Position numbers and translations under genes: made by a program
Origin: a virus
Reading direction: 5' to 3' (one strand)
DNA length: 64,000 bases
IMG/VR virus record: IMGVR_UViG_3300045988_087221
Shown: positions 56,519 to 61,754 of the stretch, one piece after another
Numbering within the stretch: the stretch's first letter is position 1
How the letters are laid out: every line of letters starts with the position of its first letter
Notes under the pieces: model-generated
Seen by the model: the letters and a program-made list of their open reading frames with translations, nothing else
Databases searched by the model: none
Told to the model about the DNA's origin: nothing

Positions 56519-57141
56519 TTTTTATAAATGGCATCAAGAATATCTTTAAAATTAGGATTATCTATTACATATTGTGCATCAGCTTCATTTTTAAATACTG
56601 GATTACCATAATATACATCAGAAGTTGGATTAATAATATTAACTTTATAATAAGGTTTTTTTATACTCCTATCATAAGCTATCATATAGCCGCGTTCACC
56701 GCTATTAACTTTATATTTCCAATCACCATTAAAATATTTAGCAATATCCATAAGATTACTTATTGCAATTATTTTCTTACGAGTTGACGTACTTACAGTA
56801 ATAGATGAATTAAGATATTCACACGCAACAATTTCTGCTATTGTTATCCATTTACTCCTAAATTTGATAATACCCTTAGCTAAATCACTATTTTCCAAGT
56901 CTATCTCCATTCCTTCAGGAATATCAATAGTTAATTGATTATTCTTTATTTCCATATCTTTTATTTCTTTAAATATTACACTAGTGTTATCCGATCTGCT
57001 ATTAGGTATACAATTACCCACAGATGGTCCAATAAGACCACATAGTTTACCATTAAATGCACAATGTGTACATAAAATAGATTTTACTACTTGATAGGTT
57101 TTACCATCATAAGTAAATACTTCACCTATTTTTCTTTCCAT
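56515..57141 (-). CDS. hypothetical protein (N-terminal Cys cluster)
   Basis: Track ORF. Contains CTHCAFNGKLCGLIGPSVGNC near the N-terminus. Confidence 0.5.
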   Translation of the reverse strand: MERKIGEVFTYDGKTYQVVKSILCTHCAFNGKLCGLIGPSVGNCIPNSRSDNTSVIFKEIKDMEIKNNQLTIDIPEGMEIDLENSDLAKGIIKFRSKWITIAEIVACEYLNSSITVSTSTRKKIIAISNLMDIAKYFNGDWKYKVNSGERGYMIAYDRSIKKPYYKVNIINPTSDVYYGNPVFKNEADAQYVIDNPNFKDILDAIYKN

Positions 57142-57569
57142 AATTTTCTTGTATCATATTTTTTATCTGGCTGTACTTTTATATAGTTACCAGTATATAT
57201 AAGCCTATTTGATACTACTTCACCATTACTATTTAAACAATACAGAGTACCTGCAGGAATAAGAAATTCTCCTAAAAATATTGAATACTCTAATAGAGAT
57301 AAAGTATACCGAAGATTTTTTTGAGTATATAAATCTACAGCAGCTGGATATAGTGGATATAATATACAGTTAAGATAACTATGTAATCCATATTCTATTG
57401 AATCTGCAAATATAATTGGTTCAACTACTAATTGATTTGCAGGATAGTCAAAATTACTATAGAAAAATGGTTTAAAAGTACCCTTATCAGCATAAGTACC
57501 TATCTTATATACTTTAATACCTCTTTTAGCTACTAGTACCTTACTTTCTTTAGTCATATAAAAACACAT
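57126..57569 (-). CDS. MC[WF]-family protein, paralog 1 of 6 (unknown function)
   Basis: Starts MCF. Carries KRGIKVYKIG, GLHSY, FLIPAGTLY and NGEVVSNRLIYTG. Confidence 0.55.
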   Translation of the reverse strand: MCFYMTKESKVLVAKRGIKVYKIGTYADKGTFKPFFYSNFDYPANQLVVEPIIFADSIEYGLHSYLNCILYPLYPAAVDLYTQKNLRYTLSLLEYSIFLGEFLIPAGTLYCLNSNGEVVSNRLIYTGNYIKVQPDKKYDTRKLWKEK

Positions 57570-57579
57570 AAGCTCGATA

Positions 57580-58041
57580 TTAAATTGAATTAAAAGATTC
57601 TTTCAAATTAGTATCAAAAACTCTCCATACACTAGAATATTGTCCTGTATAGATTATCTGATTAGATACAATTTCATTATCTTCATTAACGCAATAAATT
57701 GCTCCTTTAGGTACTATAAATTTACCTAAATATAGAGTCTCGTTAATTGTTGGATAGATACTAATTGTAGGTCTATCTTTAGTATTTTTTTGTATAACAA
57801 CAGATACTGGAGTAATAATAGTAATGGTTAAAGCTATATTTATATATCCATGAAATCCCTCATTTATATGAGATATATTGAAATTTGGATCAGTTGTATT
57901 TTTAATACCTGCTATATAAGAGAATTTAGTTATAAAGTAGGGTGTGAAGATAGCTTTATTAGCCTCCACACCTATTTTATAAACCACTATATCTCTTTTT
58001 GCTCTTAACACTTTACTTTGTTTCGATTTCCAAAAACACAT
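57580..58041 (-). CDS. MC[WF]-family protein, paralog 2 of 6
   Basis: Starts MCFW. Carries KRDIVVYKIG, GFHGY, FIVPKGAIY and NEIVSNQIIYTG. Confidence 0.55.
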   Translation of the reverse strand: MCFWKSKQSKVLRAKRDIVVYKIGVEANKAIFTPYFITKFSYIAGIKNTTDPNFNISHINEGFHGYINIALTITIITPVSVVIQKNTKDRPTISIYPTINETLYLGKFIVPKGAIYCVNEDNEIVSNQIIYTGQYSSVWRVFDTNLKESFNSI

Positions 58042-58219
58042 AAGCTTTTTATTTTACTTTTGAATAAATTACCAATTAGAACCGTTTCCATAAGGGTATC
58101 TATCTTCTGCTTCCGCATATTCATCACACCCTCCACAATTCTTTGATAGTTTATCGCACCAATAATTGTAATTAGCACAATTAATTTTTCCTTTATTAGG
58201 CCATCTACTGCTCATAAGC

Positions 58220-58567
58220 TTATTCTTTAAAATGTTTAACTATATAATCTAAAGCTCTATCATACTCTTCTTTAGTGCACTCTCTACAATATGCATTATT
58301 AAAAGCTCTATGATAAGGATAAACTATCGGGTTAATATATAGTTCAGACGTATCAGCTTCATACACGAATATAACATCTTCTTTAATATCATAGACTTTA
58401 CAGTATAAACCATTATTATCAGTATAATAGCCCTTCTTGATATTCTTTAATGCTATTTTATCTCTTAGCTCATTAATCTTATTTACTAAAGCTGTATCTT
58501 GCGCACTTAATAGAGTTCGTTGCTTTTGCAATTCTCTAATTTGATTAAAAATTTCTTGATTGTCCAT
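58220..58567 (-). CDS. hypothetical coiled-coil protein
   Basis: Track ORF with an N-terminal coiled coil. Confidence 0.5.
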   Translation of the reverse strand: MDNQEIFNQIRELQKQRTLLSAQDTALVNKINELRDKIALKNIKKGYYTDNNGLYCKVYDIKEDVIFVYEADTSELYINPIVYPYHRAFNNAYCRECTKEEYDRALDYIVKHFKE

Positions 58568-58591
58568 AATTTATTTGTTAATGTATTAAAT

Positions 58592-58630
58592 ATAAAAAGG
58601 AGTATACTAACTAATTAGCTAATATACTCC
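58592..58630 (-). terminator. rho-independent terminator after the tRNA-like RNAs
   Basis: Minus strand reads GGAGTATA-TTAGCTAATTAGTTAG-TATACTCC followed by TTTTTATATTT. Confidence 0.65.
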
Positions 58631-60032: not shown

Positions 60033-60247
60033 TATTTAAATAATTCTATAATTGGATAATAAATAATTGTATTATACTCAGCTATATTTAGTGTCCAAGC
60101 TGTAGCCCAAATCATGGCAAAGACTCCTAGTCCTACAGCGAAATACCCTGCTTTATATATAGTTCGAGTTTCATTTAATAATTGCGCTCTAAGTATTATA
60201 TATAATACAATTGTAACTATTCCTAACAATACCTCAAGTATAATCAT
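60032..60247 (-). CDS. small integral membrane protein
   Basis: Two TM helices in 71 aa. Confidence 0.45.
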   Translation of the reverse strand: MIILEVLLGIVTIVLYIILRAQLLNETRTIYKAGYFAVGLGVFAMIWATAWTLNIAEYNTIIYYPIIELFK

Positions 60248-60474
60248 TTGTATGTATTTGCATCTAAATCAATAGCAGACATACCTGTTCTATATTCGCT
60301 ATAGATAACTATCTTATGAGGTCTTTTCTTAGAATCATACATTATTTCTAATGTTTTATACTCATAAGCTGGTGCTTTAGAGCCACTTCTAGTAGGATAA
60401 TTGTAACTATTAACTAAAGTAACGGTCAATAGTAATCCTATAATTAATAATACTTTTTTCATAATTTTAAACAT
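60244..60474 (-). CDS. small secreted protein
   Basis: Signal-like N-terminus MFKIMKKVLLIIGLLLTVTLVNS. Confidence 0.45.
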   Translation of the reverse strand: MFKIMKKVLLIIGLLLTVTLVNSYNYPTRSGSKAPAYEYKTLEIMYDSKKRPHKIVIYSEYRTGMSAIDLDANTYK

Positions 60475-60896
60475 TTACCAGTATAAATGATTTTATCAGA
60501 TACAACTTCACCTTGGGCATTTATAATATATGTAGCACCTTTAGGGATTATAAAAGTTGCTATATAACCCTCATTTTCAAAAGGAACAGATATCCGTCGC
60601 TTTCCAACTAACATACCCTTAGACCTAATTGCCCTGTTATAAAAAGAAGAGTTACATATAAAATGTATCCCAGTATAACTATGATATGCTTTTTTTATGT
60701 TAACTACCTTATACTTAAAGCCAAGTACCTCATACTCTATAGTAGGTATATAATATGGAGTATTTACTGTATAATCAAAGCCCATAATAATAGACTTACA
60801 AGATTGCTTATTAGCATCGGATACTACCTTATAAACCTTAAAATCTCTATCAGCAATTTGAACATTTATCTTATCTTTAATTTCCGTCCAACACAT
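60459..60896 (-). CDS. MC[WF]-family protein, paralog 4 of 6
   Basis: Starts MCW. Carries DRDFKVYKVV, KAYHSY, FIIPKGATY and QGEVVSDKIIYTG. Confidence 0.55.
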   Translation of the reverse strand: MCWTEIKDKINVQIADRDFKVYKVVSDANKQSCKSIIMGFDYTVNTPYYIPTIEYEVLGFKYKVVNIKKAYHSYTGIHFICNSSFYNRAIRSKGMLVGKRRISVPFENEGYIATFIIPKGATYIINAQGEVVSDKIIYTGKCLKL

Positions 60897-60900
60897 AGTC

Positions 60901-61314
60901 TTATAGTTTTAAATGGTTACCTGTGTAAATAATATTAGAAGAAACTATTTCTCCTCCATCATTCTCATAATACTCAGAACCTTTAGGTACAATGAATGTT
61001 GCAATAGAATAAATATTATATAATTTAATATCTTTCGCAATCTTACCTAAATAAATCGTTCTATAAAATGAGCGTAAATCAGAGTAAGGCATAGCTATAT
61101 CTTTATAAGAATGATACCCTTCATAAATTACATAAGAGGACTCATCTTTAAAGAATTTAATAGGGTTTAGTTCAACTTTTTTATTTATTTCTTTTGGTTC
61201 ATAAATAAAGTTTTGATATAAACTTTTAAAACCTTTATCAGATACACGACCTAATTTATAAACGTAAAAATCTCGTTTAGCTATTTTTACATCACATCTA
61301 CCTATCCAGCACAT
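60901..61314 (-). CDS. MC[WF]-family protein, paralog 5 of 6
   Basis: Starts MCW. Carries KRDFYVYKLG, EGYHSY, FIVPKGSEY and GGEIVSSNIIYTG. Confidence 0.55.
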   Translation of the reverse strand: MCWIGRCDVKIAKRDFYVYKLGRVSDKGFKSLYQNFIYEPKEINKKVELNPIKFFKDESSYVIYEGYHSYKDIAMPYSDLRSFYRTIYLGKIAKDIKLYNIYSIATFIVPKGSEYYENDGGEIVSSNIIYTGNHLKL

Positions 61315-61316
61315 AA

Positions 61317-61754
61317 TTATTTGCTAAAATTACTTATTCTTAAATATTTGCCTGTATAAATAATCTCAGAAGATACTATATGTCCATACTTATTTTCAAA
61401 GTATTCAGCACCCTTTGGAACTATAAACGTAGCTATACAACAGAACTTATATCCTTCTAAAGATTCTTCCAAATCCTTGATATAATTACCTAGACATAAA
61501 CATCTAGTTGGATAAGAGTTGTCATCTATAGCTACCCATTTATAAGAATGGTAACCTTTATCTATCGTATAAACACCTATACAAGGACTATAAGTTACTA
61601 AAGGGACTATTCTATTAAGACATTTAGGAGCATAGTTATACCCCCTAATATCACTAATAAAAATATTATTCCATACAATCTTCCCTATTTTATAGACATA
61701 GAAATCTCTTTCAGCTATCTTTTTAATAGCTGTATCATCGCCTGTCCAACACAT
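61317..61754 (-). CDS. MC[WF]-family protein, paralog 6 of 6
   Basis: Starts MCW, with an in-frame stop 3 codons upstream of the ATG. Carries ERDFYVYKIG, KGYHSY, FIVPKGAEY and YGHIVSSEIIYTG. Confidence 0.55.
   Translation of the reverse strand: MCWTGDDTAIKKIAERDFYVYKIGKIVWNNIFISDIRGYNYAPKCLNRIVPLVTYSPCIGVYTIDKGYHSYKWVAIDDNSYPTRCLCLGNYIKDLEESLEGYKFCCIATFIVPKGAEYFENKYGHIVSSEIIYTGKYLRISNFSK

Follow-up and report, generated by a model that had tools for sequence, protein, structure and literature searches.

The IMG/VR virus record IMGVR_UViG_3300045988_087221, of which we analysed a stretch of 64,000 nucleotides (hereafter "the window"), carries six related genes whose protein products all start with Met-Cys and belong to a large family of phage proteins that we refer to as the MC family. 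Our main proposal, to which we would give a probability of roughly 0.4, is that these proteins depend for their function on a free N-terminal Cys (Cys2 of the translated sequence), which may act as a nucleophile or as a means of covalent capture, while variable loops set the target. We favor this chemistry because Cys2 is unsubstituted, because particular Lys, His, Ser, Asn, and Tyr residues are conserved with it, because the domain is N-terminal, and because the fold appears to be independent of the Cys.

The conservation of Cys2 was assessed in several samples of the family. In a combined alignment of 413 unique sequences it is unsubstituted in 397 of 397 aligned N-termini, the other 16 sequences having no N-terminus in the alignment. 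Among the best 150 representatives from an exhaustive search, 137 start with MC (MCW 104, MCF 21, MCY 7, MCL 4, and MCQ 1); the remaining non-MC representatives are mostly fragments or have mis-called starts, and two of these (P0247 and P0053) carry MC internally. At the IMG/VR loci, where stop-to-stop open reading frames (ORFs) were used independently of gene callers, 162 of 162 hits that reach the N-terminus of the family hidden Markov model (HMM) begin M-C, a count to be read in the knowledge that the HMM itself was built from MC-starting sequences. A separate, peripheral sample, for which the most divergent environmental members served as seeds, gave 117 MC starts in 122; its exceptions comprise one MGW and four that look like truncated or extended gene calls. 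An MSW variant (P0177) also exists. All of 161 genes have ATG as their start codon, with Cys2 encoded by TGT in 143 and by TGC in 18; both Cys codons are in use, and therefore the constraint acts on the protein.

Several other positions are held nearly as firmly, in a family whose mean column identity is 17% over 132 diverse sequences. Using the residue numbers of one of the window proteins (paralog 5, see below), these are Lys20 (404 of 405 aligned residues), Tyr38 (403/407), His68 (404/411), Pro110 (407/407), Ser125 (401/407), and Asn118 (391/407); Ser69 and Gly112 are highly conserved in the combined alignment too. Judged by sequence, the polar ones among these residues have the look of an active site. 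An earlier note on this DNA, written from the letters alone, had singled out the Cys and the His in the six window copies, and the wider homologs bear this out for both residues at the counts given here.

Fusions and longer proteins are informative about what the Cys might be for. In the longer proteins that were examined (two of 260 and 282 amino acids from locus L038, and P0223), the MC domain is N-terminal. The most instructive case is P0256 (locus L053, 6399-7865), a 488-amino-acid protein with four MC-family domains in tandem. Only domain 1 has the MC start, and in that domain Asn replaces the His. Domains 2 and 4 begin at model position 9-11, lacking the N-terminal strand that bears the Cys, and retain the GFH, IPxG, and EIVS motifs, including the His. 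Because domains 2 and 4 match the family without the Cys strand, the Cys is not needed for folding. Cys2 would thus seem to be dispensable for the fold and kept wherever a true N-terminus exists; whatever calls for it would appear to be peculiar to such an N-terminus. P0256 is a natural separation-of-function variant, useful experimentally.

The predicted structure is that of a small, all-beta domain. AlphaFold2 runs with paralog 5 as the target reached a mean predicted local distance difference test score (pLDDT) of 78 with 47 close sequences, and 94.7 with 132 diverse sequences, the latter with a predicted template modeling score of 0.87. This second model comprises approximately 135 residues in eleven beta-strands, with no helix, and its first strand begins at residue 3. 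Residues 1-10 have a pLDDT of 90 with a strand at 3-5, which places the N-terminus, as predicted, in an ordered part of the sheet. The top long-range pairs by mutual information with average product correction (107-130, 105-130, 22-29, 84-92, 114-126, and 108-115) agree with the predicted hairpins, and this covariation supports the all-beta model independently. A weak coupling links residue 3 to residue 21, beside Lys20.

Neither model resembled a solved structure: Foldseek searches of 350,542 PDB chains returned no match at E ≤ 0.001 for either one, and the best PDB match of the pLDDT 94.7 model had an E-value of 0.067 and a template modeling (TM) score of at most 0.2. Listed matches to kinesin, galectin, neurexin, alginate lyase, and phage tail proteins (E ≥ 0.05, TM ≤ 0.2) were regarded as noise. 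In the BFVD collection, the pLDDT 78 model matched nine uncharacterized phage proteins (E 1e-6 to 5e-3, TM 0.49-0.65), several of which share an accession series and so may come from multi-copy genomes; there were also weak matches to giant-virus protein domains annotated as DUF4116, ankyrin, or pentapeptide repeat. As far as these predicted models go, the fold appears to be one without a solved representative.

Put together as a mechanism, the six genes would give rise to cytoplasmic all-beta proteins of approximately 130-150 amino acids. Methionine aminopeptidase takes off a Met that precedes Cys, and removal of the initiator Met would here expose Cys2, whose alpha-amine and thiol would together form a 1,2-aminothiol. 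Cys2 would then be the reactive center, either as the nucleophile for amide or (thio)ester hydrolysis or transfer, or by covalently trapping electrophiles, for instance aldehydes or thioesters. The predicted strand directly after Cys2 would, in its position, suit an N-terminal nucleophile (Ntn) like that of the Ntn enzymes. Lys20, His68-Ser69, Asn118, Ser125, and the IPxG turn would build the site, and the poorly conserved segments (approximately residues 26-60 and 71-102) may choose the host or phage molecule for each paralog. The presence of anciently diverged paralogs in early or accessory operons suggests several targets in host takeover or counter-defense, a role of the kind that the earlier note had proposed for the array; this setting, together with the age of the paralogs, the variation in copy number, and the nearly virus-only distribution, fits such a role and does not prove it. 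Held more tentatively is the broader idea that MC proteins form a class of N-terminal-Cys (1,2-aminothiol) enzyme or trap with a new all-beta fold, which arose separately from the Ntn hydrolases, SRAP, and HypC and which large phages showing few signs of a prophage stage deploy against host targets in arrays that differ in specificity. Candidate targets for arrayed variants would include defense proteins, intermediates of ubiquitin-like conjugation activated as thioesters, and damaged or modified nucleic acid.

It is important to set out what weighs against N-terminal-Cys chemistry. The case for this chemistry is one from conservation, no homolog of known function having turned up, and Cys2 is presumed to lie near His68, Lys20, and Ser125 in the predicted fold; the Cys2 column, being invariant, carries no covariation signal. 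No acidic residue is conserved in the family. The residue after Cys2 is a bulky aromatic, in contrast to the Gly or Thr found in known Ntn and SRAP enzymes. P0256, by splitting the Cys from the His, suggests that a strict intramolecular Cys-His dyad is not universal. A small all-beta domain found in arrays and bearing variable loops also resembles a pure binding module, and the gene-wide ratio of nonsynonymous to synonymous substitution (dN/dS) is no higher than in neighboring accessory genes, so that there is no arms-race signal specific to the family.

That resemblance to a binding module leads to the alternative that we take most seriously, unlikely as we consider it: that the proteins are non-catalytic binders or inhibitors (for example "decoys" or "blockers" of host proteins) with variable loops on a beta-scaffold, in which Cys2 and His68 hold a metal or cofactor, as in HypC, or cap the fold. 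Cys plus His are classic metal ligands, the fold is predicted to be small and all-beta, and arrays of diverged paralogs with relaxed segments between motifs are what one might see in such a system; the four-domain P0256 resembles a repeat binder, and the weak BFVD matches to DUF4116, ankyrin, and pentapeptide repeat domains point the same way. Scaffolds, however, rarely hold one N-terminal residue invariant over thousands of clusters while the rest drifts. A single Cys and a single His are conserved, with no second Cys or His and no acidic ligand, and HypC itself gave an hhalign probability of 0.17% and was absent from the Foldseek PDB matches listed, none of which was significant. A purely fold-capping Cys sits poorly with the Cys-less domains that still match the family model. 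A structural role in the virion or its morphogenesis, for example as decoration or fiber-associated beta-domains, would likewise suit the predicted all-beta fold, and phage tail and baseplate proteins are among the top non-significant Foldseek matches; these matches have E ≥ 0.05 and TM ≤ 0.2, however, the surroundings are not a structural module but consist of genes for replication and nucleotide metabolism, small early-type ORFs, and tRNAs, and copy number ranges from 1 to 8 among related phages. We hold this to be the least probable of the explanations, and very improbable in absolute terms.

Two further explanations keep the emphasis on Cys2 and give it another purpose. The first would make the family an analog of SRAP, with Cys2 forming a thiazolidine with a ring-opened abasic site or aldehyde in DNA or RNA and so shielding phage nucleic acid against cleavage, such as might follow the action of a host glycosylase. 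SRAP has precisely this requirement, namely a Cys2 that is invariant and has a free amine, most members are basic (family median isoelectric point, pI, 8.9; five of the six window copies pI 8.4-9.4), and the genes occur in a replication and nucleotide-metabolism neighborhood, where a PurZ-like gene suggests that the DNA is modified. Nevertheless, there is no similarity to SRAP in sequence, profile, or fold (no Pfam match, hhalign 0.1%, nothing among the Foldseek matches listed), one window copy is acidic (pI 5.1), and a conserved Glu/Asn arrangement like that of SRAP could not be verified. SRAP is also normally single-copy, and six to eight diverged copies would be odd for a generic lesion shield. 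We judge this analogy quite improbable. Slightly less persuasive, and in our estimation a long shot, is the idea that Cys2 is a regulatory N-terminal signal (N-degron, redox or oxygen sensor, or acylation site) that governs the stability or location of otherwise ordinary small phage proteins. Proteins that start with MC are oxygen-sensing N-degron substrates in plants and animals, many of the carrier phages come from gut samples, and the window encodes the anaerobic NrdD. However, bacteria are not known to have a Cys-oxidation/arginylation pathway, an N-terminus that, as predicted here, is ordered and part of a sheet is atypical of a degron, and the family also occurs on contigs of 317-405 kilobases (kb) from IMG/VR samples other than the main gut-group sample. 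Such a signal would, moreover, leave the co-conserved Lys, His, Ser, and Asn unexplained. Chemistry at a free N-terminal Cys thus remains our preferred reading.

How large is the family, and who carries it? An exhaustive HMMER search over 1.84 billion representative proteins, one for each cluster at 50% identity, recovered 3963 such clusters at E ≤ 1e-3, and 745 with the stricter threshold of E ≤ 1e-10; a word-indexed search of 5.8 billion proteins returned 2362 clusters at 90% identity, and a homolog search from one peripheral member returned 3 proteins only. The hits listed in the protein searches had no precomputed Pfam domain and no name beyond "hypothetical protein." In IMG/VR, a scan identified 47 loci, their contigs measuring 14-405 kb, and near-identical copies of the window proteins are present on 142-225 kb contigs from human-gut metagenomes. 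By contrast, a tblastn search of 50,697 GenBank phage records with diverse members and consensus queries identified only two: IAS virus (Crassvirales, Steigviridae), where the copy is the hypothetical protein gp013, and MT835539, an unannotated fecal contig. Two narrow peptide-pattern scans (of limited sensitivity) over 185,579 species-representative genomes produced only two loci, both on 3-4 kb contigs of metagenome-assembled genomes, the first scan, with patterns from alignment A2, having found none. The MC family belongs almost entirely to uncultured phages, and its near-absence from cellular genomes suggests that the carrier phages are virulent rather than temperate.

The earlier note had not recognized the family and had suggested that a confident match to a housekeeping or structural family would count against its idea; such a match was searched for and none was found, the curated libraries (Pfam, NCBIfam, PADLOC) and PDB being without one. 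Specifically, Pfam gave no match at E ≤ 1 for the six window proteins nor at E ≤ 0.01 for the 132 diverse members, and NCBIfam and PADLOC returned nothing meaningful for the six. Sub-threshold matches to HHH_7, ShyA, and RoxB were discarded as single, short, and far under the cut-offs, and a PDB profile match to the MS2 coat protein at E 0.11 (profiles A1 and A3) was disregarded. At the profile level, however, the family corresponds to phrog_13450, a PHROG of unknown function: matches to it are seen for 102 of the 132 diverse members (best E 2.9e-16) and, along most of the protein, for five of the window copies (E 3.6e-4 to 4.6e-3), the sixth, at 59054-59437, not reaching E 0.1. We regard phrog_13450 as the same family, with the window copies distant from its members; being unannotated, it provides no functional information. 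The MC family is outside every known family with which it was compared, and was already known only as an unannotated PHROGs cluster. The libraries and literature that we searched contain no account of its N-terminal Cys, fold, or function.

The window copies themselves are straightforward to delineate. All six lie on the minus strand and, in the order in which they are read, are paralog 6 (61317..61754; 145 amino acids, starting MCWT; HMM E 2e-38), paralog 5 (60901..61314; 137 amino acids, MCWI; E 4e-42), paralog 4 (60459..60896; 145 amino acids, MCWT; E 1e-36), paralog 3 (59054..59437; 127 amino acids, MCWT; E 1e-27), paralog 2 (57580..58041; 153 amino acids, MCFW; E 3e-35), and paralog 1 (57126..57569; 147 amino acids, MCFY; E 9e-32). 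Run against all stop-to-stop ORFs of the window, the family HMM found these six copies and nothing else at E < 1. Each ATG has an in-frame stop 1-11 codons 5' of it, and therefore the starts of the six genes are fixed. Paralogs are 30-40% identical to each other in a MAFFT alignment (A1), in which M1, C2, V-Y-K, Y42, I58, H63, Y65, F102, P105, G107, N113, V-S, Y125, and G127 are invariant. The shared blocks read M-C-[WF]; A/x-R/K-D-x-x-VYK; GxHSY; F-I-x-P-x-G-x-x-Y; and G-E/H-I/V-V-S...I-Y-T-G. The His motif is GFHGY in paralog 2 and GLHSY in paralog 1, and paralog 3, the shortest of the six, is also the sole acidic one. On all of these matters the earlier note was accurate: its six ORFs of 127-153 amino acids agree exactly with ours, its five motif blocks are all present in A1, and its argument that upstream stops fix the starts holds, two sense codons separating the stop from the ATG of 61317-61754.

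With intergenic gaps of 2, 4, and 10 nucleotides, and two downstream genes that overlap family genes by 16 nucleotides, the arrangement is operon-like. Paralogs 6, 5, and 4 form a tandem block (gaps of 2 and 4 nucleotides) that ends with paralog 4; paralog 3 stands by itself, flanked by a terminator-like hairpin and a conserved RNA; and paralog 1 follows paralog 2 after 10 nucleotides and has a 16-nucleotide overlap with the next gene. These three transcription units (6-5-4, 3, and 2-1) are separated by terminator-like hairpins on the minus strand at 62607-62573, 58631-58598, and approximately 59490-59460. All three hairpins have AT-rich stems and loops with AATTAG (TAATTAG in two of them), and may represent a phage-specific regulatory or terminator element.

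Among other phages, loci carry 1-8 MC-family copies within 10 kb on either side of the hit, usually head-to-tail. Related phage contigs of 142-225 kb have 2-8 copies, close relatives have eight (5+1+2) versus the six of the window (3+1+2), and several loci hold split or frameshifted copies. Each paralog has its own orthologs in related phages at approximately 60-100% identity (for paralog 6, 63-86%, and 99% for P0001). Since orthologs are far closer to one another than the paralogs are, the six paralogs are old. One relative (L009) shows 100%, 94%, 90%, and 75% identity for four of the paralogs, and this gene-to-gene spread indicates mosaic exchange.

Selection on these genes was examined through the same orthologs. 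The dN/dS values are 0.52-0.71 for paralog 1, 0.28-0.53 for paralog 2, 0.17-0.90 for paralog 3, 0.20-0.48 for paralog 4, 0.17-0.63 for paralog 5, and 0.27-0.53 for paralog 6, thus 0.17-0.90 over whole genes, compared with 0.05-0.62 for neighboring accessory genes (two pairs being left out of this range, a near-identical one at 1.62 and another with dN = 0). Within the family, the conserved blocks have values of 0.16-0.42 and the segments between blocks 0.5-1.04. Judged by these substitution patterns, the family genes are evidently real and selected, with a core under purifying selection and relaxed loops, and the whole region evolves fast, the MC family not being exceptional within it. The description of the array as "rapidly diverging" in the earlier note was consequently an overstatement: the paralogs are old, their gene-wide dN/dS is like that of their neighbors, and only the segments between blocks are relaxed.

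That note had also placed the array next to RNA genes, which is correct in that two tRNAs lie 0.9-1.3 kb upstream and a conserved structured RNA lies within it. The latter occupies a 486-nucleotide ORF-free stretch (58568-59053, minus strand) between paralog 3 and the gene at 58220-58567, a stretch that more than 25 related loci share at 75-97% nucleotide identity, a conservation better than that of the adjacent protein genes. It contains a module of approximately 110-190 nucleotides in two tandem copies, each closed by a long-range stem. Copy 1 (58900..59045, minus strand) is directly downstream of paralog 3 and scores 177.7 bits with our covariance model; copy 2 (58664..58851, minus strand) is diverged, with an insertion, gives a full-length covariance match of 40.1 bits (E 7e-6), and is followed by the hairpin at 58631-58598. 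In 36 instances, 94.6% of cells are standard pairs, compared with approximately 40% in slid controls, and 19 of 35 pairs show compensatory changes, compared with 2-6 in these controls; both comparisons should be read with the caveat that the instances were aligned by fitting them to the model and that many of the changes are differences between the two paralog classes. No Rfam match was found at E ≤ 1. We consider this a well-supported candidate for a new structured non-coding RNA. In the loci that were checked, the RNA is just downstream of an MC-family gene, including on 54-99 kb contigs (L014, L016, L018, and L022) of crAss-like phage size, and in four loci (L013, L021, L029, and L030) a tRNA-Leu lies between the two. 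The RNA is given here as locus context, and a link to the MC proteins is not implied.

The window as a whole is approximately 31% guanine plus cytosine, and nearly all of its ORFs of at least 100 amino acids are on the minus strand. Its genes include NrdD, helicases, a primase, exonucleases, and a PurZ-like adenylosuccinate synthetase homolog, in keeping with the replication and nucleotide metabolism of a large phage, along with eight tRNAs and one tmRNA. The tmRNA (46097-46433, minus strand) has the tag peptide GEVNNTSASYAIAA and is present also in L009, L025, and L028. The PurZ-like gene (32226-33410, minus strand) matches phrog_1211 (E 3.8e-43), whose annotation is a PurZ-type adenylosuccinate synthetase of the 2-aminoadenine pathway, and the phage may therefore carry modified (Z-base) DNA; genes that by eye resemble the adenylosuccinate-synthetase type are also present near MC-family genes in other loci. 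Across diverse loci, inspection of sequence motifs by eye showed what looked like generic replication and nucleotide-metabolism neighbors and no constant partner.

Of the ten nearest neighbor genes in the window, none has a significant Pfam match except that at 63187-63750 (minus strand), which encodes a YkuD_2 L,D-transpeptidase protein (E 1.9e-31) with what looks by eye like a lipoprotein N-terminus, that is, a hydrophobic stretch and then a Cys. This gene is just upstream of the tRNAs, and a cell-wall enzyme is unusual for a phage early region. The two tRNAs upstream of the paralog 6-4 operon, both on the minus strand, were called by ARAGORN as tRNA-Ile(TAT) at 62637-62711 and as an atypical tRNA to which no anticodon was assigned ("ct," type "???") at 62954-63027, with Rfam tRNA scores of 61.4 and 47.9 bits, respectively. 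At a similar position, related loci have "???" tRNAs with 2-base anticodons (tt, ta, or ct) or a tRNA-Tyr (ata/gta), which suggests that an unusual anticodon loop is conserved in this phage group. Predicted suppressor tRNAs with the anticodon TTA, reading UAA, occur in L019 (7039-7123), L020 (6099-6183), and L025 (6816-6900), and a CTA (amber) suppressor in a more distant phage (L039, 799-871). They give a hint that relatives recode stop codons; translation table 11 gives a clean reading of the window.

Why should phage biologists care about one residue? An absolutely conserved N-terminal residue is among the few sequence features that point to chemistry by themselves, and the Ntn hydrolases, SRAP/HMCES, HypC, and the Pro1 tautomerases each opened a distinct mechanistic field. 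Here, approximately 4000 clusters at 50% identity lack both curated annotation and a solved relative, cultured representatives are almost absent, and the genes are multi-copy in abundant human-gut phages, including crAss-like ones, and present in phage contigs of up to 405 kb. If the Cys is catalytic or covalently reactive, the family would represent a new enzyme or covalent-trap fold, and would provide a function for a sizeable portion of phage "dark matter."

Comparison with known systems helps to place the family. To our knowledge, every well-studied family with an invariant Cys2 uses its N-terminal Cys directly: as the nucleophile in class-II amidotransferases and other Ntn hydrolases, to form a thiazolidine with abasic sites in SRAP/HMCES/YedK, and to ligate Fe(CN)2CO in HypC. 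Our hhalign references for these (YedK, 2ICU and 6KBS; HypC, 2OT2; and GlmS residues 1-261) were checked against PDB. One unrelated profile match deserves mention, namely that to Legionella LnaB (8k6e; E 0.015, approximately 50 residues), in which "EGYHSYSE" covers H305 and E309 of LnaB. LnaB belongs to the S-HxxxE AMPylase family, has a catalytic H305xxxE309, and comprises fourteen helices (PMC11142304). We dismissed this match as coincidence: it concerns a single short stretch, LnaB is all-helical whereas the MC family is predicted to be all-beta, and the Glu four residues after the His is not conserved, this position being W, N, S, G, T, D, or K in MC proteins.

With the Ntn hydrolases (GlmS, PurF, AsnB, and penicillin V acylase/bile-salt hydrolase) the family has in common the Met-Cys start, and in the model the Cys is placed before the first predicted beta-strand; this is the type of activity at which the earlier note had hinted, along with a Cys/His one. 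The Ntn fold, however, is a four-layer alpha-beta-beta-alpha sandwich of at least 200 amino acids, whereas the MC model has approximately 135 and is helix-free. Homology was rejected given an hhalign probability of 0.16% against the GlmS glutaminase domain and the lack of a significant Pfam or Foldseek match; there is no Ntn hydrolase among the Foldseek matches listed for the pLDDT 94.7 model, and a match of the pLDDT 78 model to beta-lactam synthetase, which has an Ntn-type domain, was not significant (E 0.39, probability 0.04). HypC is likewise small and mostly beta, with an invariant and functionally essential N-terminal Cys. Its domain is described as an oligonucleotide/oligosaccharide-binding (OB) fold, and it is a single-copy cellular gene in hydrogenase operons. 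Its motif MC(L/I/V)(G/A)(L/I/V)P is absent from the MC family, where residue 3 is W/F/Y/L/T with no GxP after it, and homology to HypC/HybG/HupF (PF01455) was rejected on the hhalign value given above and on the lack of a Pfam or significant Foldseek match.

In SRAP, too, Cys2 is invariant and ends up as the first residue of the protein, as it would in MC proteins after removal of Met, and SRAP genes are often carried by phages. The MC proteins differ from it in being half the size, predicted to be all-beta, and multi-copy, and in starting MC[WFYLT] rather than MCGR. Homology to SRAP (PF02586) was rejected, the 0.1% probability cited above being that of alignment A3 against YedK and Pfam showing nothing, as was a shared fold, with no SRAP chain among the Foldseek PDB matches listed for either model, 50 of them in the case of the pLDDT 94.7 one. 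By analogy, it is possible that the two share a chemistry that needs both an alpha-amine and a thiol. What the MC family has in common with SRAP, the Ntn hydrolases, and HypC would then be, on present sequence comparisons, the principle of a working N-terminal Cys and not a common ancestry.

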